The position numbers and the translations under genes were made by a program. From Acidobacteriota bacterium (GTDB lineage Bacteria > Acidobacteriota > Blastocatellia > Pyrinomonadales > Pyrinomonadaceae), in assembly GCA_023436495.1 (NCBI GenBank), contig JAEZIT010000120.1, positions 14,107-78,106 of the forward strand: a stretch of 64,000 bases of DNA, read 5' to 3'. This document shows positions 4,970-47,793 of this stretch, in pieces. Numbering within the stretch: position 1 is the stretch's first letter; every line of letters begins with the position of its first letter. The notes beneath the pieces are model-generated. The model had not been told where the DNA came from. It saw only the letters and a list, made by a program, of their open reading frames with translations, and did not search any database.

Positions 4970-7765
4970 ATGTCTATTAAAAAGCTCTTCGGCTTTTTGC
5001 TAATCTTGTTCTCACTTATGGCAAATATCACTTTTGCGCAGAGCGACGGCAAGTTGCCGAAATTGAATTACGAAGAATTCAAGTTGAAGAACGGTTTGCG
5101 GGTGATCATGCACCGCGATCCTTCGACGCCGATCGTGGCTGTAAACCTTTGGTATCACGTGGGTTCCAAGAACGAGGTCGTCGGCAAGACCGGCTTTGCA
5201 CACCTGTTTGAACATATGATGTTCCAGGGGTCGAAGAATTACAACGACGATTATTTCAAGCCGCTGCAGGAAGCCGGCGCTAACATTAACGGTTCAACGA
5301 ACCCTGACCGAACAAATTATTTCGAGGTCGTGCCGTCAAATTTCCTCGAGCTTGCTCTCTTTATGGAAGCAGACCGTATGGGCGGCCTGCTCGAAGCGAT
5401 GACGCAGGAAAAGCTAGACAACCAGCGCGACGTAGTCAAGAACGAACGCCGCCAGCGTTACGACAACCAGCCTTACGGAACCGCGTTCGAAAAGATTTTT
5501 GCGCAAATGTTTCCGCCGGGACATCCGTATAACTGGACGACCATCGGCTCGTTGGAAGATCTTTCGGCTGCTTCGATGGACGACGTAAAGGCATTTTTCC
5601 GCCAATATTACACGCCGAACAATACCTCCCTCGTGATAGCGGGCGATTTCGATCCGAAACAGGCAAAACAGTGGGTGGAGAAATATTTCGGGCCTATCCC
5701 GGCCGGAACCGACATCACGCGGCCTAATCCTGCGGCACCTAAGTTAACCGATGAGGTCCGGAAGACCTATGAAGATTCGGTCCAGCTGCCGCGTCTTTAC
5801 ATGGTGTGGCACAGCAGCCCCGCATACAGCGCCGACGAGGCTCCGCTCGATATTTTGAGCTCGATCCTTACGTCAGGCCGCGGCTCGCGTCTGCAAAGCA
5901 ATCTCGTTTATGACAAGCAGATAGCTCAGGACGTAGGCGCCTTCAATTATGCCCTGGAAGCCGGCGGAATGTTCATCACCCAGTCAACGGCGAAACCCGG
6001 TAAAACGCTCGAGGAGATCGAAAAGGAGATCAACGCCGAGATCGAACGCCTCAAGAACGAACCGCCGACTGCCGAAGAAATGGCAAGGGCATTGAATTCG
6101 ATAGAATCACAGACGGTGCTCGGGATGCAGACCGTGCTCGGGAAGGCCGACCAGATGAATGCCTATACGACATTTGTGGGCCGTCCGGATTATTTCCAGA
6201 CAGATCTGGACCGCTACCGCAAGGTAACGCCGGCGGACGTACAGCGCGTCGCTAAGAACTACTTGAACGGCAACCGATTCGTCATGCAGTTCGTACCGCG
6301 CAAGGAAAAGGCCGCTTCGCAACAGGCTGGCGGTGCCAACCGCCCCACCTCGGCCGCGGCAAAGGAAAAGGAAAAGGAAGAAACGAAGGATTATTCCGCA
6401 AATCTGCCCAAGCCGGGCCCGGATCCGAAACTCGTCCTGCCGTCTATCGAGAAACATAAACTCTCGAACGGCCTGAACGTGTGGGTGGTCAATCAATCGG
6501 AACTTCCAATTGTTTCGATGAACATGGTCGTAAACACCGGAGGCACTGCTGATCCGGCCGACCGTGCGGGACTCGCCTTCATGACGGCAGGCCTTCTCGA
6601 TGACGGAACAAAGACGCGATCGGCGGTCGAGATCGCTAATCAGGCACAGGCGATCGGGGCTTCGATCGGAACTGGGTCGGGCTGGGACGCAGCAAACGTT
6701 ACGTTGCAGACGCTGACCAAAAATCTCGATAAGGCTCTGGATCTGTACTCGGACGTGATCGTTAACCCGGTGTTCCCTGCCGACGAACTTGAGACTGTCC
6801 GCAGGCGTGCACTCGTCGGATTTCTTCAGCGAAAGGACAACCCGAACGCGATCGCTAATGTGGTTTATAACGGACTGCTCTATGGCAAGAACCATCCGTA
6901 CGGTAAGAGCCTCGGCGGCGACGAATCTTCGATCAAGTCGATCACGAAACCGGAGATCGAAAAGTTCTATTCGACATATTACAGGCCGAATAATTCGACG
7001 TTGATCGTCGTGGGCGATGTAACCTCGAAACAGCTTTTGCCGAAGCTTGAAAAAGCGTTCGCAGGATGGAAAGCTGCAGACGCCCCTGCCGTTGCGGTTC
7101 CGAACGCAGCCCAGTTCGACGCCCCCGGCATCTATATAGTTGACAAGCCGGGTGCGGCACAATCGGTCATCTCGATCGGACAGGTCGGCGTTGCACGAAA
7201 TAACCCCGACTATTTCCCGCTGACCGTGATGAATTCGATACTAGGCGGCCAGTTTTCGGCTCGAGTTAACATGAACCTTCGCGAGGACAAAGGCTACACC
7301 TACGGAGCCCGAACGGGATTCGGCTTTAGACGCGGCGCCGGCCCGTTCTCAGCCGATGCTGACGTGCAGACCGCAGTCACCAAGGAATCAGTTCAGGAAT
7401 TCTTAAAGGAACTAAACGGTATCCGCGGTGCGATCCCGGTTACGCCGGCCGAACTCGAGTACAACAAACAGAGCCTGATCCGTCGCTACCCGGCGGGATT
7501 CGAAACGGTCGGACAGATCTCCGGCCAACTTGCGAATCTGGTCATTTACGGGCTTCCGGATACATATTTCAACGATTATATCCGGAATATTCAGGCCGTT
7601 ACCGTACAGGACGTCAACCGCGTCGCTAACAAATATCTGACGCCGGACAAAATGGCGATCCTGATCGTTGGCGACAGGACCGTGATCGAACCTAAGCTGA
7701 AGGAAATCGAAAGCTGGGGCGATATGATCAAACACCTTGATTCGGAAGGGAATCCGATCAAGTAA
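4970..7765 (+). CDS. Secreted M16 (pitrilysin/insulinase) family zinc peptidase, fused double unit (931 aa)
   Basis: Signal peptide and inverted zinc motif HxxEH (HLFEHMMFQGS) in the first half. The second M16 unit lacks the motif. Confidence 0.9.
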   Translation: MSIKKLFGFLLILFSLMANITFAQSDGKLPKLNYEEFKLKNGLRVIMHRDPSTPIVAVNLWYHVGSKNEVVGKTGFAHLFEHMMFQGSKNYNDDYFKPLQEAGANINGSTNPDRTNYFEVVPSNFLELALFMEADRMGGLLEAMTQEKLDNQRDVVKNERRQRYDNQPYGTAFEKIFAQMFPPGHPYNWTTIGSLEDLSAASMDDVKAFFRQYYTPNNTSLVIAGDFDPKQAKQWVEKYFGPIPAGTDITRPNPAAPKLTDEVRKTYEDSVQLPRLYMVWHSSPAYSADEAPLDILSSILTSGRGSRLQSNLVYDKQIAQDVGAFNYALEAGGMFITQSTAKPGKTLEEIEKEINAEIERLKNEPPTAEEMARALNSIESQTVLGMQTVLGKADQMNAYTTFVGRPDYFQTDLDRYRKVTPADVQRVAKNYLNGNRFVMQFVPRKEKAASQQAGGANRPTSAAAKEKEKEETKDYSANLPKPGPDPKLVLPSIEKHKLSNGLNVWVVNQSELPIVSMNMVVNTGGTADPADRAGLAFMTAGLLDDGTKTRSAVEIANQAQAIGASIGTGSGWDAANVTLQTLTKNLDKALDLYSDVIVNPVFPADELETVRRRALVGFLQRKDNPNAIANVVYNGLLYGKNHPYGKSLGGDESSIKSITKPEIEKFYSTYYRPNNSTLIVVGDVTSKQLLPKLEKAFAGWKAADAPAVAVPNAAQFDAPGIYIVDKPGAAQSVISIGQVGVARNNPDYFPLTVMNSILGGQFSARVNMNLREDKGYTYGARTGFGFRRGAGPFSADADVQTAVTKESVQEFLKELNGIRGAIPVTPAELEYNKQSLIRRYPAGFETVGQISGQLANLVIYGLPDTYFNDYIRNIQAVTVQDVNRVANKYLTPDKMAILIVGDRTVIEPKLKEIESWGDMIKHLDSEGNPIK

Positions 7766-7792
7766 GCGAAGGATGAACGGGCTGCCGATCGA

Positions 7793-8347
7793 TCAGGCGG
7801 CCCGTTCTATTTCCGAAGCTTCGGCCGGATGTTCGGCCTCCTGTTCAGCTATATTCTCTGCTGCAGCATCAACTGCCATGGGCCCCGCGTTTTCGATCAG
7901 CGGCTTGCTCAGCTTGCCGACCAGCCATCGCCTGTAGACCTCGGCCTCTTCCAGCTTGCCGGTCCATCGTGCACGATCCAGCATTGTCAGCGCCATCGAT
8001 AAACAATGATGCTGTCCGGCGCGGTCCTGACGAGCCGAAAATAGGACGTAGCCTTGTTCGAGAAACTGTACGCCTCGTGTAGCCGTTTCCACGTCCTTGA
8101 AGCCCAACTTTCCGCGAAAGAATTTCGAATAAATATTCATCGGGTGGGCCGTCGATGTATAAAGATCGAAATAATTATCGATCAGACCTTCCTTATGCAA
8201 TACTGACCCGACATAGCTCGGTTTCGCTCCCGAGATGGCAGCGATCGTCTCGATCTCTGTTATACCGGCTCGAAACAGCGACAGTATCGTGTCCTTCTTG
8301 CTTGCCAGTACCCGTTTGTCTTTTGTTTCCAACACTTCGTTATTCAT
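7793..8347 (-). CDS. Hypothetical protein (185 aa), possible N-terminal HTH
   Basis: I prefer the ATG at 8347, preceded by AGGAG, over the track start at 8545, which would overlap the divergent TopIB gene. No recognisable catalytic motif. Confidence 0.55.
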   Translation of the reverse strand: MNNEVLETKDKRVLASKKDTILSLFRAGITEIETIAAISGAKPSYVGSVLHKEGLIDNYFDLYTSTAHPMNIYSKFFRGKLGFKDVETATRGVQFLEQGYVLFSARQDRAGQHHCLSMALTMLDRARWTGKLEEAEVYRRWLVGKLSKPLIENAGPMAVDAAAENIAEQEAEHPAEASEIERAA

Positions 8348-40690: not shown

Positions 40691-41554
40691 TCACTGCCCG
40701 TCAATGCGTGTTTCCAGCGTGTCCTGCAATGCCTTCGGCAGGGCATCCAACAGGTCATATCCCGTCCGCCGTTCGATCTCTCTGACCGTGGTCCTGTACC
40801 GTTCCCAGCGCTGGTTATCCAGCCCGTCCGTGTTCGGCATATCGACCGCGATCACGCGCGTCCGTTCGTTTACATCCGCCGCGCCGCGTCCGCGCGGCAG
40901 CACGATCACCACTTTCCAGCAATTCGTCGGCACCGTGATCTTGTTCTTGATTCTGCCCTTGTCGCCGTAAACTCCCGCGATCGTGTAAACGTCGTTCCCG
41001 TTTCGCACCAGACGCCTCGAATACGATTCCAGCGTCTCCCACGGGTATTGGTTCAGGCTGCCCGTTTGCGGCACGATATTCGTCATAAAAAAGGTCTCTT
41101 CGTTTCGTGTCGCGTCGCCGAACCGGTCCGCGCTCGGCAGCAGGTGCCCGCGGTTGTATCCGCTGCCCGAATAATCGAAATACGCGATGCGCGCAAATCC
41201 CGCCGGCGAACGCGGGTCCGGCCGAAAATCCGGTCGCTGCAATTTTGACCCGAGGTCTTCGCGCGTCGTTCGCCACGCGACCCAATTCGCCGTCCCGCGG
41301 CTATTGTTATACGATATCGCCGACCCTTCGCCGACGATCAGAAAATTATCCCGGTCCGCCGCGTCCGCCGTCGCCTTCGACGGGTTCCCGAACGCCAAAT
41401 GGACGCTCGAAACCGGTTCCGGCGCCCGCCGCGCCGCCGCATTCGCCGCATTCGCCGCGGCGTTCGCGTCATCCCGCGGCCATTCGCGCACCGCCCCGCA
41501 CCCCGCCAACCCCAACACGATCAACGCCGCCAAAACTGTGGTTACTATTCGCAT
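40691..41554 (-). CDS. Secreted DNA/RNA non-specific endonuclease (beta-beta-alpha-Me, NucA/EndoG family)
   Basis: Signal/lipoprotein-like N-terminus (LAGCG). Active-site motif GYNRGHLLPSADR and downstream N (TNIVPQ). Confidence 0.88.
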   Translation of the reverse strand: MRIVTTVLAALIVLGLAGCGAVREWPRDDANAAANAANAAARRAPEPVSSVHLAFGNPSKATADAADRDNFLIVGEGSAISYNNSRGTANWVAWRTTREDLGSKLQRPDFRPDPRSPAGFARIAYFDYSGSGYNRGHLLPSADRFGDATRNEETFFMTNIVPQTGSLNQYPWETLESYSRRLVRNGNDVYTIAGVYGDKGRIKNKITVPTNCWKVVIVLPRGRGAADVNERTRVIAVDMPNTDGLDNQRWERYRTTVREIERRTGYDLLDALPKALQDTLETRIDGQ

Positions 41555-41654
41555 GAAACTATTTACTGCCGCTAACCATTATGAAGCATTCCGCCGCGAA
41601 TCTCCCTCCGACAACAGAAGCACAGCGCAATACATCTGATCCTTGTCTTCCATT

Positions 41655-41812
41655 GAATTGCCCCTAGCTTTAGCTAGGGGTTCTCGAACAGTAAACGCCC
41701 CGGCTTTAGCCGAACCTCTTTTTAAATTCCATTCCTTATGGCTTCAGCCAAATTTGGGCTAAAGCCCGGTCAATATCCATGCTCAAAGCCCTAGCTAAAG
41801 CTAGGGGCAATT
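41655..41812. repeat. REPIN-like inverted doublet of family-A palindromic repeats
   Basis: Left arm GAATTGCCCCTAGCTTTAGCTAGGGG...CCGGCTTTAGCCG. Right arm GGGCTAAAGCCC...CCCTAGCTAAAGCTAGGGGCAATT. The arms are reverse complements in overall order. Confidence 0.8.
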
Positions 41813-41861
41813 TATTTCCGCGCCTAACTATTCCCCGTGTTTTGCGGTAAAATAGACTTTT

Positions 41862-42947
41862 ATGTCCGAAAAGACGCACATTACGGGCCTATCGCCGGCG
41901 GCGCTCGCCGAACTTGTCGAATCCATCGGCGAGCCGAAATACCGCGCCGTCCAGATCTTCAAAGGCGTGCACGGCCGCCGCCTGCGCTCGTTCGACGACA
42001 TGACCGACCTGCCGAAGGCCTTTCGTGCAAAACTTGCCGAGATCGCTGACGTCTCGACGCTGACCGTCGACGCGCGTTACGTTTCCGAAGACGGCACGCG
42101 GCGCTATCTGATGACCACCGCCGACGGCCGCCCGGTCGAAACCGTCTTTATCCCGACCGAAGGCCGCGACACCATCTGTTTCTCGTCGCAATCCGGCTGC
42201 CCGCTCAAATGCGATTTCTGCCTGACGGCAAAACTTGGCCTGCTGCGCAACCTGACGGCGGCAGAGATCGTCGAACAGATCATCATCGTCCTGAATGACG
42301 TTTACGGCGTTGGCGGCGAAACTCCGCACGGGACCAATCTTGTCGCGATGGGCGCGGGCGAACCGTTCCTGAATTTTGAGGATCTCATCGCCGCGCTCGA
42401 TATTATGTCCAGCGAAGACGGCCTGTTCATCGTGCCCGGCCGCGTCACCGTTTCGACCGCCGGCATCGTGCCGAAGATATATGAGTTTGCACAGCTCGAA
42501 CGCCGGCCGAACCTCGCCATTTCGCTTTCGGCGCCGAACGACGAGCTCCGCGACAAACTTATGCCGATCAACCGCCGCTGGAACATCGCGGAATTGATGG
42601 CTGCGGCAAAGGCGTTCCAAAAAACGCTCGGCCGCGGCGAACGCTTTACGTTCGAATATGTCCTGCTCGGCGGCGTCAACGATTCCGACCGCCATGCCGA
42701 AGACCTGGCGGCGCTCGTCAAGCGCCACGGCCTGTCGCGGGTCAAAATAAACCTGATCCCGCATAATCCGGCCGAACAGCTCGATTATCATCCGTCGGCC
42801 CCGGAACAGGTCGGCCGCTTCAAACAGATCCTGGAATCGAACGGCATTTCGGCGTACGTCCGCCGTCCGCGCGGCCGCGATATTTACGCTGCGTGCGGCC
42901 AACTGGCTGCAAAACAGGAACCGAATCTGGTACAGATCGCCGCCTGA
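41862..42947 (+). CDS. rlmN: 23S rRNA/tRNA (adenine-C2)-methyltransferase, radical SAM
   Basis: SSQSGCPLKCDFCLT radical-SAM motif, N-terminal KYRAVQIFKGVH, and C-terminal CGQL. Confidence 0.93.
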   Translation: MSEKTHITGLSPAALAELVESIGEPKYRAVQIFKGVHGRRLRSFDDMTDLPKAFRAKLAEIADVSTLTVDARYVSEDGTRRYLMTTADGRPVETVFIPTEGRDTICFSSQSGCPLKCDFCLTAKLGLLRNLTAAEIVEQIIIVLNDVYGVGGETPHGTNLVAMGAGEPFLNFEDLIAALDIMSSEDGLFIVPGRVTVSTAGIVPKIYEFAQLERRPNLAISLSAPNDELRDKLMPINRRWNIAELMAAAKAFQKTLGRGERFTFEYVLLGGVNDSDRHAEDLAALVKRHGLSRVKINLIPHNPAEQLDYHPSAPEQVGRFKQILESNGISAYVRRPRGRDIYAACGQLAAKQEPNLVQIAA

Positions 42948-42960
42948 CAATTTTTCGATT

Positions 42961-43470
42961 ATGGAACTTATGATCCCGGGTCTGATACTCGTCGCACTGA
43001 TGGTGTATCTTTCGACCCGCATAAAACGCACCGCGGCCGAAGCCTTCGCCCGCGAAGAGATAGACACAGGCGAATTCTCGCTCGTTAAGCCGGAAGGCTT
43101 CATCAATCCCGTCAAGGACGCGAGCGAATATGCATTCGAAGCCTATTCCAAGGACTACGGCCGCGATGCCGCGGGCAATCTGCCTCAGGCGTCGATCACC
43201 GTAAAACGCCACGGCAGTGACCTCGAATCCGTTTACGAATCCGCACGCGGTTCGCTGACCGACCCCGAAACGATCGGCTCCGACGGCGACGAATTCGTCG
43301 TCCGCGGCCGCGGCACCGAAGGCAGCACCGCCGCCGAGGTCTATTACAAACTAGTACGCGCCGGCAGCGCCGTTTACGAATTTCGCACCTGCGCCCTCAC
43401 CGACCACGCAGCCGATTTCCGCGAACGCCTCCGCCAAACCGCCGACAGCTTCGCCGTCCGCCCGCGGTAA
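42961..43470 (+). CDS. Hypothetical single-pass membrane protein (169 aa)
   Basis: N-terminal TM helix. Lies 13 nt downstream of rlmN. No motif recognised. Confidence 0.5.
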   Translation: MELMIPGLILVALMVYLSTRIKRTAAEAFAREEIDTGEFSLVKPEGFINPVKDASEYAFEAYSKDYGRDAAGNLPQASITVKRHGSDLESVYESARGSLTDPETIGSDGDEFVVRGRGTEGSTAAEVYYKLVRAGSAVYEFRTCALTDHAADFRERLRQTADSFAVRPR

Positions 43471-43535
43471 CTGCTCCGCGACATTTTTACAACAGAGTGG
43501 AGCAGTCGAAGAGTAACGGAAGTAAAACAGGCGGA

Positions 43536-43668
43536 GAATTGCCCCTAGCTTTCCTTTTTTGAATTGCCCCTAGCTTTCCTCCGTTGAATTGCCCCTAGCT
43601 TTCCTCTGTTGAATTGCCCCTAGCTTTAGCTAGGGGTCCTCGAACAATAAAAGCCCCGGCTTTAGCCG
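43536..43668 (+). repeat. Three 25-bp tandem truncated family-A half-repeats, then a full family-A hairpin and a secondary hairpin
   Basis: GAATTGCCCCTAGCTTTCCT(TTTTT/CCGTT/CTGTT) x3, then GAATTGCCCCTAGCTTTAGCTAGGGG and CCGGCTTTAGCCG. Confidence 0.85.
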
Positions 43669-43711
43669 AACTACTTCTTTAAAACGATCATCCTTAAAGC
43701 TTTAGCTGAAT

Positions 43712-44143
43712 TTAGCCGAATTTTACAAACCCCGCCCGATTAAGGAAATCCTCAAATTCTTTTTCGAATGTTCGGCCCCGATGATGTTCCTCCTGCCGGG
43801 CAATATAGTTTCGGACGCCTTCTAAATTGGATTCACTTACGGACACGGCAAAGTACTCTTCCTGCCACCCGAACTTGAGCTTCGTAAGTTTATTTTTATT
43901 GATCCAAAATGAGGATTCACCTTTTAATAATCGAACGACGTCCTCAAGCGTCTGGTTGGTCCCCAGCGAGATCAAACAATGGATGTGATCGACATAGCCA
44001 CCGATAAAATCCAGAAAGATTCCTTTCTGCAATGCGTTTTCGCGAATGTGATCGAACACCTTCGACCGAATTTCCGGCTTTAAATAAGGATGTCGGTTCT
44101 TTGTCGACCAGACGATGTGTATCCAGACCTTTACAAATGGCAT
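43712..44143 (-). CDS. IS200/IS605-type Y1 (HUH) transposase; REP-associated tyrosine transposase (RAYT) candidate
   Basis: 143 aa. HUH motif in YVDHIHCLIS and catalytic Tyr region VRNYIARQEEHH. N-terminal VWSTKNR pattern. Confidence 0.85.
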   Translation of the reverse strand: MPFVKVWIHIVWSTKNRHPYLKPEIRSKVFDHIRENALQKGIFLDFIGGYVDHIHCLISLGTNQTLEDVVRLLKGESSFWINKNKLTKLKFGWQEEYFAVSVSESNLEGVRNYIARQEEHHRGRTFEKEFEDFLNRAGFVKFG

Positions 44144-44217
44144 ATGAGAGAATTTGGATGATTTGTTTTTCAGATTGTTCCATATGGCGAAATTTGGCGC
44201 AAGACCGAGGTAGCTTT

Positions 44218-44274
44218 GGGCTAAAGCCCGACCATTTGCTGGACTTATCCACTAGCTAAAGCTAGTGGCAATTC
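44218..44274 (-). repeat. Family-A REP (variant) with secondary hairpin, right flank of RAYT
   Basis: GGGCTAAAGCCC followed by CCACTAGCTAAAGCTAGTGGCAATTC. Confidence 0.8.
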
Positions 44275-44382
44275 AAATGAAGAAACTCTTTTATGAAAAC
44301 GCCGCTATTTTCAGCCGGTAACGCTTCGTTCTGCCGGTCAACCGTTCGCCCTGGGGCGGCATCTGACCTACAATATTGAAAT

Positions 44383-44838
44383 ATGACGAAATTCCTACTG
44401 TTGATCGCCATAATATTCGCCGCCGGGATCGGCCTTGAATCATCCGCCCAAACCGTTACCGGATCTGTCGGCACCGCTACACGCGGAAAAGCCGTCAGCG
44501 GCACCGTCGTTATAAATATCCCGGACGGCCTGCACGTAAATTCCAACCGGCCAAATAGCGAATACGCCATCCCGACGACCGTCCGCCTTACGGCACCCGG
44601 CGCTCGTGTCGGCGCGGTCCGCTATCCGCGCGGCCGCAACCGCAAATTCCAATTTTCCGAAAGCACGATCAACGTTTACGAAGGCCGAGTCGCCATTCCG
44701 TTCACCGTCACCGTTCCCGCGAACTACCGCGGCAACACCGTCCGCGTCCGCGCCGCCGTCCGCTACCAGGCCTGCACCGACGAGGTCTGCTATCCCCCAA
44801 AAACCGCGGACATAACCATGACCGCCCGCGTGCGTTAA
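44383..44838 (+). CDS. Secreted DsbD N-terminal (alpha) domain-like protein
   Basis: Signal peptide, an Ig-like beta pattern, and the characteristic C-terminal YQACTDEVCYPP Cys pair. Confidence 0.75.
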   Translation: MTKFLLLIAIIFAAGIGLESSAQTVTGSVGTATRGKAVSGTVVINIPDGLHVNSNRPNSEYAIPTTVRLTAPGARVGAVRYPRGRNRKFQFSESTINVYEGRVAIPFTVTVPANYRGNTVRVRAAVRYQACTDEVCYPPKTADITMTARVR

Positions 44839-44864
44839 AACGCAGGAAGGACGCCCGCACATAC

Positions 44865-45129
44865 GACGGACCGCTGGTCCGTCTCTTAATGTAAGGCGGA
44901 CCGCTGGTCCGCCAACCCCGCCCATCGGCCCGCAAATTGTCCCAACAAACCTCTGCGCAAACATCGCGGACCACCGGTCCGCGTTACATCTCCGCCGCCA
45001 AATGTACAGCGGACCGCTGGTCCGTCGCGCCCCGCAGCCCATCGTTCCGTAAAATCCCCCGACAAGCCTCTGCGCAAACATCGCGGACCACCGGTCCGCG
45101 TTACGTTCCCAAGCCCGCGTTACATCTCC
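44865..45129. repeat. Family-B GC-rich palindromes (GCGGACC-NNN-GGTCCGC), five copies within a ~115-bp tandem duplication
   Basis: Palindromes at 44865-83, 44895-913, 44966-82, 45010-25 and 45083-99. The flanking segment CCTCTGCGCAAACATCGCGGACCACCGGTCCGCGTTAC is duplicated. Confidence 0.8.
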
Positions 45130-45130
45130 C

Positions 45131-45452
45131 CAGCCTCGTAGAGGCGTACCGTTTGTAGAACCTGCCAGCCGATCAACGCCCCAAGCTCCGTAGGAGCGAC
45201 CCGTTTGTAGAACCGCACATCAGCCAAGCGCGCCAAGCTCCGTTAGGAGCGACCCGTTTGTAGAACCGCGCACCAAAAGTTCATCCCTAGCTCCGTAGGA
45301 GCGTCCCGTTTGTAGAACGACATGCCCAATTAATGACCCAAGCTCCGTAGGAGCGACCCGTTCCCGCACCGCCCAAACCAACGGGCCGCTCCTACGGAGC
45401 TACGAAAACTTTTCCCACCCATTACTACAAACGGAACGCTCCTCCGGAGCTC
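45131..45452. repeat. Family-C repeats (AGCTCCGTAGGAGCGACCCGTTTGTAGAAC): five direct copies at 52-53-bp period plus two inverted copies
   Basis: Direct copies start near 45131, 45182, 45234, 45288 and 45339. Inverted copies are at 45381-45401 and 45422-45452. Confidence 0.8.
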
Positions 45453-45580
45453 AAAACAAAACTCCTCTTCCTTTGCGTCCTCCGCGTCTCTGCATGAGAT
45501 CTTCTGCCGAAGCCCGCACGCAGTAAGGGCGAAACATCCAACGCCATACCTACGCTAGCCGCCCGACTTTCCTCCCATAA

Positions 45581-45753
45581 ATTGCCACGGGCCTCAGCCC
45601 GTGGTCACCGCCCAACAACCAATCCGGCTTCAGCCAAATTGGGCTAAAGCCCAGTAAATGATGATGCTTCCATCCCCGAGCTAAAGCTCGGGGCAACTTA
45701 TAAAAAGAGGTCAATGATGATGCTCCATCCCCGAGCTAAAGCTCAGGGCAACT
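45581..45753. repeat. Family-A-related hairpins (variants), including a tandem duplicated unit
   Basis: ATTGCCACGGGCCTCAGCCCGTGG, GGCTTCAGCC and GGGCTAAAGCCC. Also two copies of ATGATGATGCT(T)CCATCCCCGAGCTAAAGCTC(G/A)GGGCAACT. Confidence 0.75.
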
Positions 45754-45807
45754 CATAAAACCTCGAGACAAAAGCGATCCATTTTCTCCCCCACTCCCCC
45801 AAAACTC

Positions 45808-47793
45808 TCACTCAATTATCACCGTCCTCGCGTTCGCAAGCTCCTCCGGCGTTTTCAGCCTGAAACTCTCCGGTACGAACGCGATCGCCACTAGTTCGGC
45901 GGGAATGCCCGGGCGGGCGGGTTTATAGGTCAGGACGGTGAGCTGCGTTCCAAACCCCACTCCGCAATCGATCGCGAACGAATTGCTGCCTTCGGTCAAC
46001 ACGGACATCCGCAGGCCCGAAAAATCCCTGCTCGCCAATTCGGTCTTTTGCCCGGCGATCGTCACCGCGTAGCGGATCTTTCCGTCGCGGCACGTCACGC
46101 GATCGACATACCCCACGGCCTGCCGTTCGCCCGTGCCCGGCCTCTCCAATATGCGGTTCAGATTCGTATTCACCCGGTCGAGCTCCAAACGGGCGAGGTC
46201 GGCGTCCGTCACGGCGGAGCGTTTCAAAAATATCGGCGGAGGCCCGAAATAGATCATATCGCCGTGCATCGCCTCGCGCGCCGCCGCGTATTGGATGACG
46301 GCAAGGACGATCGCTTGAGCATCGGCACGCGTCTCGCGCGAAGCCGCATCCGACGCCGCAACGCGCTCGGCGATCGCCTTTGCTTCCGAATATTTTTCCT
46401 GCATCACCAGCGCCTTTGCCAGCAGGACCTCGTACGCCGGTTTTCCCGGATCGATCGACAGGGCAGTGCGAATTTGCTCCGCGGCCTCGTCCGGGTTCTC
46501 GCCGTTGGCGATGTTTATGAACGCCAGCAGCGCATACGGATCCGCCTGGCGGTTGTCAGCAGCGATCGCCCGCCGCAGGGCCTGCCGCATCGCCGCTGAA
46601 TCCGCGGTAGAGTATTTTGCGACCCTGCCGAACGCGTCGGCGGATTCGCGGCTGACCGCGTACGCATAATTAAAATTCGCCGCGGCCGTGTTGCTCTTCG
46701 CAACGGCCTTTTGGAGGAACGGCTTTGCTTCGGCGAACCGTTCCTGCCTGACCAACGCGTCGCCGAGCGCGGCATTTGCCTCCGGCGACGACGGCTCGAG
46801 CTTCAACGCCTCGCGCAGCATCTCCTCGCCCTCAAAAACACGTCCCATCCGCGACAGAAGATCCCCGAGGTACGCCTTCGCCGTCGCCTCCGTGATCCGT
46901 TTCGAAGCGGCCTGTACACTTTTGGCGGCGCTGCCGGACGGCCTTGGTGCAGAAGGTGGCACCGATGCGAAATTCGCAACATAGATGGACAGCTCTCGTT
47001 CGAATGCGGCCGCGTCGAGAGAGTAGACCCGAGCAAGCGCGGTATCGATGCCGGCAGGCGCCGCCTTCAGAAATTCGGCCATCTTGCCCGCACCGCCGCG
47101 CTGCATCAGAAAATGCACGGCCGCCCAACTCTGCGCATAGAACAGCCCGCGCGAAGCGCTCCGCTCGCGATGGAGTTCCTTGTTGGAAACCGCGAACAAC
47201 TCACCCAGCGGAATAAGCTTTTCCTTTCGCAGCACGGACGCGTGGCCGGCCGGCTCGCGCCCGAAAACCGCCGCGCCGTCCTCGACCCGAAATGTCTCGA
47301 AGTATTCCGCGAGGCCTTCGCCCAGCCACGCGGGAACTTTGCCCGGGCCGAAATTCGAATTCAGAACGTAGTGCGTGTATTCGTGAAAGACCGTGTTGAA
47401 CGGGTCCGTACGGCCGGCCGCCGCGAAGGTTATATAGTTCACATCGCCCGCGGCAAGGAAATATCCGACGGCGCTCTCATCAGGAAGGCCGTCCGCCGTC
47501 ACCGGCTTGAACGGCGTGTAGGCGGCCTGGTCTTTGAAAACAATGACGTTGGTTTCGGTGCGGCTCTCCGATCTTAGGTCTGGGAAAACCTGCCGCAGCG
47601 CCGCGCGAAATTTCTCCAGCCCGCCGCCGGCGTTGCGGATGTCCGCTTCGGACGCGTTGCCGATCAGATGGAAATTATCGGTCCGAACCTCGGTCCATAC
47701 ATCACCGCCCGCCCGCGCGCCTATGCAGAGCAGCGCGATCGCCGCCATCAATAACAGGCTGCGAAATTTAATGAGAACCGCCGGGTGATGCAT
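45808..47793 (-). CDS. Secreted MA-clan HExxH metallopeptidase-like protein with TPR repeats
   Basis: Signal peptide, HEYTHY zinc-binding-type motif (VFHEYTHYVL), and a central TPR-like helical region. Confidence 0.75.
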   Translation of the reverse strand: MHHPAVLIKFRSLLLMAAIALLCIGARAGGDVWTEVRTDNFHLIGNASEADIRNAGGGLEKFRAALRQVFPDLRSESRTETNVIVFKDQAAYTPFKPVTADGLPDESAVGYFLAAGDVNYITFAAAGRTDPFNTVFHEYTHYVLNSNFGPGKVPAWLGEGLAEYFETFRVEDGAAVFGREPAGHASVLRKEKLIPLGELFAVSNKELHRERSASRGLFYAQSWAAVHFLMQRGGAGKMAEFLKAAPAGIDTALARVYSLDAAAFERELSIYVANFASVPPSAPRPSGSAAKSVQAASKRITEATAKAYLGDLLSRMGRVFEGEEMLREALKLEPSSPEANAALGDALVRQERFAEAKPFLQKAVAKSNTAAANFNYAYAVSRESADAFGRVAKYSTADSAAMRQALRRAIAADNRQADPYALLAFINIANGENPDEAAEQIRTALSIDPGKPAYEVLLAKALVMQEKYSEAKAIAERVAASDAASRETRADAQAIVLAVIQYAAAREAMHGDMIYFGPPPIFLKRSAVTDADLARLELDRVNTNLNRILERPGTGERQAVGYVDRVTCRDGKIRYAVTIAGQKTELASRDFSGLRMSVLTEGSNSFAIDCGVGFGTQLTVLTYKPARPGIPAELVAIAFVPESFRLKTPEELANARTVIIE

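Follow-up and report, generated by a model that had tools for sequence, protein, structure and literature searches.

We analysed a stretch of 64,000 nucleotides (the window) from an Acidobacteriota bacterium of the family Pyrinomonadaceae (GenBank assembly GCA_023436495.1, contig JAEZIT010000120.1, positions 14,107 to 78,106 of the forward strand), concentrating on its only Y1/HUH tyrosine transposase gene and on the inverted hairpin repeats that surround it. An initial annotation had described a minus-strand open reading frame (ORF) with the HUH motif VDHIHCL and the catalytic-tyrosine segment VRNYIARQEEHH, and the ORF and both motifs were recovered exactly where it had placed them (Table 1). 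Directly outside the gene lie two copies of a repeat unit in opposite orientation, each consisting of a short head, a first hairpin (HP1), a spacer and a second hairpin (HP2). Head and HP1 of the unit on the stop-codon side, GAATTGCCCCTAGCTTTAGCTAGGGG (43611-43636), return as the reverse complement at 44249-44274 on the start-codon side, with a CCCC/GGGG to CCAC/GTGG change that is compensated on both arms. The inverted pair, the compensated change and the two secondary hairpins had all been reported by the initial annotation, and the sequence confirms each of them. The two units form a 37-nt inverted-repeat pair (I1) that is 86% complementary, and both hairpins are seen in the DNA fold of each unit. 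The GC content of the cassette made up of gene and units is 42-45%, compared to 57-64% in the surrounding region.

The gene ends inside a relative of its own repeat. Its last codons, TTC GGC TAA on the minus strand, fall within a TTTAGCCGAA repeat, which bears out the earlier suggestion that they belong to a motif related to the repetitive extragenic palindrome (REP). In many homologues the stop codon is found in the loop of an HP2-type hairpin (GGC-TAA-AGCC), and this hairpin is followed by a second HP2 and then by HP1, the same order as in the window.

A covariance model (CM) of the unit finds seven copies in the window, all within 41652-45757. Besides the two that flank the gene, these form two gene-less inverted doublets, one 2 kb to each side of the Y1 cassette, in line with the further hairpin copies that had been noted in nearby intergenic DNA. 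The doublet at 41652-41816 is located between a divergent nuclease gene and rlmN. It folds into a single long hairpin (-40.7 kcal/mol, z = -7.8), whereas single units fold as two local hairpins. Two spurious minus-strand ORFs of 47-54 aa, at 41736-41879 and 45550-45714, cross the doublets, and the hairpins appear in their translations as ...LPLALARA... and ...LKP...; automatic annotation could label them hypothetical proteins.

Table 1. Positions of the Y1 gene, the repeat units and their derivatives in the window (CM, covariance model; HP1 and HP2, first and second hairpin)
Feature	Position	Strand	Evidence or detail
Gene-less inverted doublet	41652-41816		units 41652-41716 (+) and 41752-41816 (-); CM 67.1 and 62.0 bits
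Tandem half-hairpin array, three 25-nt copies of head and HP1 5' arm, each ending in loop TTT	43536-43610	+	GAATTGCCCCTAGCTTT + CCTYYKTT
Repeat unit, stop-codon side of Y1 gene	43608-43672	+	CM R1 68.0 bits, E = 5e-15
Stop-side unit, head	43611-43616	+	GAATTG
Stop-side unit, HP1 (followed by spacer and HP2)	43617-43636	+	CCCCTAGC-TTTA-GCTAGGGG
Stop-side unit, HP2	43656-43668	+	CCGGCTTTAGCCG; CGGC-TTTA-GCCG at 43657-43668, then AAC
Degenerate hairpin fragments, overlapping the last codons and stop of the Y1 gene	43698-43723	+	AGCTTTAGCT, then TTTAGCCGAA about 2.3 times
Y1/HUH tyrosine transposase gene, 143 aa	43712-44143	-	ORF, Pfam Y1_Tnp, NCBIfam IS200, alignments, AlphaFold2/Foldseek
Repeat unit, start-codon side of Y1 gene, inverted	44214-44277	-	CM R1 68.1 bits
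Start-side unit, HP2	44218-44229	-	GGGCTAAAGCCC
Start-side unit, HP1	44249-44268	-	compensated CCAC/GTGG stem
Second gene-less doublet	45576-45757		CM 46.3, 69.2 and 30.3 bits; alignment A4
Second doublet, divergent unit	45576-45640	+	stem CCACGGGC/GCCCGTGG
Second doublet, unit	45637-45702	-	stem CCCCGAGC/GCTCGGGG
Second doublet, extra partial HP1 copy	45713-45757	-	

The number of units in the window is small, which is the one point in favour of a chance arrangement of palindromes around an ORF. However, the 26-mer GAATTGCCCCTAGCTTTAGCTAGGGG has 4 matches in the window at up to three mismatches, against 0.00 expected from shuffled sequences; head plus HP1 5' arm has 7, against 0.02 expected; and GCTTTAGC occurs 13 times, against 1.4 expected. 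CM E-values go down to 1e-15, and dozens of independent genomes show the same arrangement. A chance origin is therefore vanishingly improbable, and the shuffles and CM scores, together with the association between gene and repeat described below, refute it.

The anatomy of the unit was derived from a degenerate-pattern scan with one genome per species, which gave 147 matches in at least 120 loci, and from covariance model R1, built from an alignment of 86 units. The 65-nt unit is bipartite: the head RRTTG, preceded by a T-rich flank, and the 8-bp HP1 come first, and a spacer of variable length (19-27 nt, about 22 nt) separates them from HP2 and RAA. The consensus of HP1 is CCNNNNGC-TTTA-GCNNNNGG, or CCNCNAGC-TTTA-GCTNGNGG as laid out over the 147 pattern matches; HP2 is GGC-TTTA-GCC followed by RAA, with the hairpin form GGCTTTAGCC. 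The head reads GAATTG, AAATTG or AAGTTG, with T7, T8 and G9 invariant (alignment A1), and the GTAG or GTGG head that precedes the hairpin in canonical REPs is absent from the units. No Rfam family covers them, and weak matches to microRNA families only reflect long hairpins.

The compensated change first noticed between the two gene-flanking units is real and is part of a strong covariation of the stems across 86 to 147 copies. Both of the stem positions that the pattern leaves free are Watson-Crick paired in 133 of the 147 matches. Over the 86 aligned units the first of these positions is AU 46 times, UA 29 times and CG 6 times, the other UA 42, CG 34 and GC 7 times, and the unconstrained outer pair of HP2 is GC 23, CG 18 and UA 12 times. 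None of 500 shuffles reached the observed covariation score. Further compensated stems occur in loci selected by their protein (CCGTTGGC/GCCAACGG and CCTCCTGC/GCAGGAGG), with the head kept in all of them. Thus head, loop and closing GC pairs stay fixed while the stems vary by compensated changes, and the stem variants are in part lineage-specific.

The repeat is closely tied to the gene. Among loci found by the repeat, tblastn identified Y1 homologues of 51-72% identity adjoining the pattern matches in L012, L038, L005, L079, L062, L091, L001 and L006. A more distant Y1 gene, of 40% identity, is present in L035. A plus-strand unit on one side of the gene and a minus-strand unit on the other were seen in the window and in L012, L038, L005, L062, L091, L006 and L126, and the CM shows this layout in most of the loci with a homologue, whichever way the gene is oriented.

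Since this first sample had been chosen by the repeat, we conducted the converse test on loci chosen by protein alone. Eighty metagenome loci were fetched in this way, 68 of them with both flanks of the gene visible; a strict hairpin regular expression proved too insensitive compared to the CM and was replaced by an nhmmer search restricted to the flanks. The CM finds 211 units in the 80 loci. In 65 of the 68 loci (96%) the distance from the Y1 gene to a unit is no more than 280 nt, while a unit is present in 1 of 323 control windows taken at least 1 kb away (0.3%). The minus-strand unit stands on the stop-codon side in 54 of the 68 loci and the full canonical pair is present in 37. One protein-selected locus (L177) also has a second, distant Y1 gene (467-868, 37% identity) 1.6 kb upstream of its subclass-1.2 gene.

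This proximity is hard to explain without a functional link, and so bears on the reading that the units serve the host in regulation or structure, for instance as terminators, small-RNA genes or protein-binding sites, and that the Y1 gene merely adjoins them. Such a role would be consistent with the terminator-like score of the gene-strand HP2 followed by GCTTTTATTG, with the stop codon placed in a hairpin loop in many homologues, and with the Rfam small-RNA motifs that occur near doublets (Flavo-1 and an Acido-Lenti-1-like hairpin). However, doublets are found between divergent as well as convergent genes, a promoter and terminator scan gave nothing above shuffled sequences, and the units match no Rfam family. 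We consider host elements a very improbable explanation.

Across 120 listed loci and the window, 240 units were placed, and adjacent units are convergent in 86 pairs, divergent in 10 and tandem in 9. The gaps of convergent pairs are mostly 0-77 nt (one is 103 nt), or 438-651 nt where the Y1 gene lies in between. Only 5.8% of units are inside ORFs of at least 150 aa, compared to 78.6% of random positions. The copies are thus intergenic and mostly inverted, as the initial annotation had anticipated. The system is not specific to Acidobacteria, and the pair of repeat and gene also occurs in Flavobacterium and in many other phyla. The pairing recurs in at least eight bacterial phyla, with conservation of the unit sequence in Acidobacteriota, Bacteroidota, Planctomycetota and five or more others. 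Among complete genomes, it is present in Pyrinomonadaceae OY969475.1 and OZ252034.1 and in Flavobacterium anhuiense FLA4 (CP158861). The hosts among the matches listed are, within Acidobacteriota, Pyrinomonadaceae, Blastocatellia and Chloracidobacterium and, elsewhere, many Flavobacterium isolates, Chitinophagales, Cytophagales, Pirellulales, Spartobacteria, Ignavibacteria, Caldithrix, Zixibacteria and Gemmatimonadota.

Tandem arrays of half-hairpins adjoin some of the gene-flanking units. The array in the window (repeat family D1; Tandem Repeats Finder period 25, 3.7 copies, 94% matches), which the initial annotation had not mentioned, lies on the outer side of the stop-side unit, and similar arrays occupy the outer side of a gene-flanking unit in L001, L087, L091, L103, L117, L126, L186, L191 and L203, the last with at least five copies of 18 nt. 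At every array junction the TTT of the loop runs into the T-rich sequence 5' of the head. This structure is compatible both with slippage of the replication machinery at the apex of the hairpin, by microhomology between T runs, and with enzymatic cutting, in the HP1 loop, and rejoining.

The protein carries the HUH motif DHIH (residues 52-55), WQ (93-94), the catalytic-tyrosine motif YIARQEEHH (113-121) and a conserved C-terminal tail, F..EF..F...AGF. In a 19-sequence alignment H53, H55 and Y113 are invariant, and the tail is represented by the conserved columns F126, E129, F133, G138 and F139. Pfam Y1_Tnp matches with E = 8e-26. The NCBIfam IS200 equivalog scores 63.6 bits (cutoff 55), while REP_Tyr_transpos scores 27.3 bits, below its cutoff of 80, and the class-2 signature Y---NP is absent. 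A phmmer search of PDB sequences found the TnpA proteins of ISDra2 (2e-10, with an alignment that spans the HUH and tyrosine motifs) and IS608 (8e-6), and did not find the Escherichia coli REP-associated tyrosine transposase (RAYT) 4ER8 at E up to 1. Foldseek comparison of an AlphaFold2 model (predicted local distance difference test score, pLDDT, 73) returned IS200/IS605 TnpA structures at ranks 1-29 and 4ER8 at rank 30. Three of the proteins (P0244, P0245 and P0249, about 290 aa) consist of two complete Y1 modules fused in tandem, with HUH and Y---Q--HH in both; they resemble single-chain dimers of subclass 1.2 and predict that the enzyme acts as a dimer, and several such clusters are present among the best 150 representatives.

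Judged by its motifs and length against Table 1 of PMC6006769, the protein appears to be an IS200-like TnpAY1 of subclass 1.2. This subclass was described as related to IS200, low in copy number and without the features of an insertion sequence (IS) (Quentin, Siguier, Chandler and Fichant 2018, BMC Genomics 19:475; PMC6006769). The window protein shares with it DH[IV]H, WQ, Y---Q--HH, a length of about 148 aa (here 143), the C-terminal tail, an apparently low copy number and the lack of typical IS features. The same study lists subclass 1.2 as 'REP: no' and as occurring mostly in Cyanobacteria and Bacteroidetes. Unlike this description, members of the window type are tightly tied to an RRTTG two-hairpin repeat and are also found in Acidobacteriota, Planctomycetota, Zixibacteria, Ignavibacteria and other phyla. 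The automatic REP search used there demanded a GTAG or GTGG head, and would therefore miss a repeat headed by RRTTG. The 'IS200 Group 3' of Bertels, Gallie and Rainey (2017, PMC5581495) is described as RAYT-like, without duplicates, not found on plasmids and flanked by abundant 16-mers. Judged by this description it may be the same family; the text consulted does not describe the repeat itself. No paper describing the RRTTG two-hairpin repeat was found, and a search by the repeat sequence gave primers and unrelated text.

Taken together, these results point to what is probably a REP/RAYT-type system, built on an IS200-like class-1 enzyme and a two-hairpin repeat without the GTAG head. The RAYT/REPIN (REP doublet forming a hairpin) reading of the initial annotation survives in its Y1/HUH gene with inverted hairpins and its gene-less doublets, but the gene is not a classical class-2 RAYT. 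As in the classical systems (E. coli TnpA-REP, 4ER8; Pseudomonas groups 2 and 3; PMC3116915), a single Y1 gene is bracketed by inverted REPs in a REPtron-like arrangement, and the gene-less extragenic inverted doublets can fold as single long hairpins. Unlike in the classical systems, the enzyme is of class 1 (Y---Q) rather than class 2 (Y---NP), the unit has two hairpins, and the GTAG head is missing. REPs are not conserved between species (PMC6006769), whereas the present repeat is conserved across phyla.

Several observations weigh against a REP/RAYT-type system. By both sequence and fold, the protein belongs with IS200/IS605 TnpA and not with classical RAYTs. In the window the CM finds no unit in the other approximately 59 kb and none more than 2.5 kb from the Y1 gene. 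Abundance is low, with indirect estimates of about one site per 80-100 kb (one per 78 kb from extra sites in 8-kb blocks); the estimated copy number is in the tens, not the hundreds of classical REPs, and far below classical REPIN populations. We infer binding, cleavage and mobilisation by the enzyme from the biochemistry of IS200/IS605 and of E. coli TnpA-REP. The cassette also behaves as an insertion and is AT-rich for its host. Named RlmN homologues place the window in Pyrinomonadaceae. Three relatives keep the order nuclease, rlmN, hypothetical gene and DsbD_N-like gene, with RlmN 81-85% identical, and L122, L123 and L124 have no cassette between the two genes that enclose it in the window. 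The three syntenic relatives have neither doublet at the corresponding sites, the doublet at 41652-41816 is absent from the corresponding intergenic region of L122, L124 and L125, and L123 carries a doublet at a different site. The absence from these sites marks cassette and doublets as lineage-specific gains, which fits a mobile element and not the strict vertical inheritance of RAYT groups 2 and 3, the best-studied ones; the gene is also, unlike a classical RAYT, not syntenic with its relatives. Comparison with the empty sites gave no insertion boundaries or target site, as the relatives' intergenic DNA is too diverged to align at this RlmN identity, and no neighbour genes are shared with five other loci from Pyrinomonadaceae and Blastocatellia.

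These observations can be read as the signature of an ordinary autonomous IS200-family IS, in which the cassette is mobile and the gene-less doublets are derivatives by internal deletion, similar to miniature inverted-repeat transposable elements. The NCBIfam IS200 score above cutoff, the nearest solved structures (ISDra2 and IS608 TnpA), the insertion of an AT-rich cassette relative to syntenic relatives, its differing position among Pyrinomonadaceae genomes, and a doublet that equals the cassette minus the gene are all consistent with this. However, the left and right ends of IS200/IS605 elements are asymmetric, lack terminal inverted repeats and carry their hairpins on one and the same strand, whereas the present cassette ends symmetrically, in two inverted copies of a single unit. 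The identical proteins P0001, P0012 and P0035 were found on 2, 9 and 10 contigs, respectively, with one genomic context each, and protein-selected loci have a single subclass-1.2 gene per locus. A single context for identical proteins indicates that the gene, probably single-copy, does not behave as a multi-copy IS, and the multiple identical copies that the initial annotation had named as evidence against its own reading were not seen in the contigs and loci compared. The system is nearly absent from mobile replicons: a single match to the repeat pattern was obtained from 2.9 million viral contigs, and the only protein matches on plasmids were 2 of less than 40% identity. Units greatly outnumber genes, and WQ and Y---Q--HH, which differ from the W and Y motifs of IS200/IS605, belong to the non-IS subclass 1.2 and not to subclass 1.1. 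Clustering with canonical IS200 TnpA, likewise named in advance as evidence against a RAYT, came out half true, because scores and fold do group the protein with IS200/IS605 TnpA while its motifs are those of a non-IS subclass. Given the grouping of the protein with IS200 and the insertion of the cassette in this lineage, an ordinary IS keeps some weight, although we regard it as unlikely.

For a REP/RAYT-type system, a mechanism can be proposed from the nearest relatives. IS200/IS605 TnpA enzymes combine HUH and single-tyrosine chemistry with recognition of DNA hairpins, and the IS608 and ISDra2 enzymes, as the best sequence and structure matches, would share both properties with the window protein. 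The enzyme, probably a dimer like IS200/IS605 TnpA, would bind hairpins with the TTTA loop in single-stranded DNA, replication forks being the most likely place, and would cleave and rejoin beside them, thereby copying or moving units and doublets in trans. The unit-gene-unit cassette may have entered the lineage as a single insertion and then seeded the nearby doublets. Preferential action of the enzyme near its own gene would explain the clustering of three sites within 4.2 kb.

Among transposases that bacteria retain as single-copy genes and that maintain a population of small repeats, those of REP/RAYT systems are the main example, and to our knowledge almost all work on these systems concerns Proteobacteria. 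It is about an even question whether the subclass-1.2 enzymes are a second REP system, domesticated independently within the IS200 lineage. Such a system would have the RRTTG two-hairpin unit as its cognate repeat, with head, loop and closing pairs near-identical over at least eight phyla and compensated drift of the stems, a gene that ends in its own hairpin, and half-hairpin 'scars' at the outer edge. If true, this would overturn both the statement that subclass 1.2 has no REPs and the statement that REPs are species-specific. The results expose a gap in classification, in that an IS200-like subclass thought to be repeat-less has a well-defined cognate repeat. The conserved core with compensated stems amounts to a natural mutational map, according to which the enzyme probably reads RRTTG, the TTTA loop and the closing GC pairs. 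Cultivable Flavobacterium isolates carry the system, and enzyme-dependent mobilisation is directly testable there. In soil Acidobacteriota and Bacteroidota, the 130-nt doublets and their spurious ORFs could now be labelled correctly.

Other repeats and small-RNA motifs were observed near the units. The consensus of the Rfam family Acido-Lenti-1 (RF01687) has a GC-rich stem of 8 bp, a loop of 4 nt and, after the hairpin, CUAAUUU; it is similar to HP1 and head read on the reverse strand. No match to it was obtained in the window at 41000-46500 at E up to 5, and loop and stem sequences differ. In L052 a hairpin at 7250-7283, CCCAGGGC-TAAA-GCCCTGGG followed by CTATTTT, adjoins a doublet and scores 30.3 bits with Acido-Lenti-1 (gathering score 37). 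Given the resemblance of its consensus to the reverse strand of HP1 and head, Acido-Lenti-1 may itself be REP-like. Rfam Flavo-1 RNA matches occur in Flavobacterium loci at L083 4098-4176, L087 3624-3692, L087 413-490 and L089 5395-5473. The first two score 41.5 and 43.1 bits, about the gathering value of 42, and the other two well above it. The latter two lie 100-160 nt from REP doublets, which suggests that the same intergenic regions collect several repeat and small-RNA elements. In Flavobacterium cellulosilyticum (L001), a CRISPR array (Rfam CRISPR-DR50; 6654-7988) with 18 or more repeats begins about 1.5 kb downstream of the Y1 cassette.

In the window, a 117-nt tandem repeat at 44866-45099 contains five palindromes of the form GCGGACC(G/A)C(T/C)GGTCCGC, which are confined to that intergenic region. 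A 52-nt tandem repeat of about four copies with the core AGCTCCGTAGGAGCG follows at 45149-45451, and two inverted copies of it form a long hairpin at 45341-45401. It is a third repeat family in this 969-nt intergenic region, the counterpart of which in L124 is only 81 nt long.

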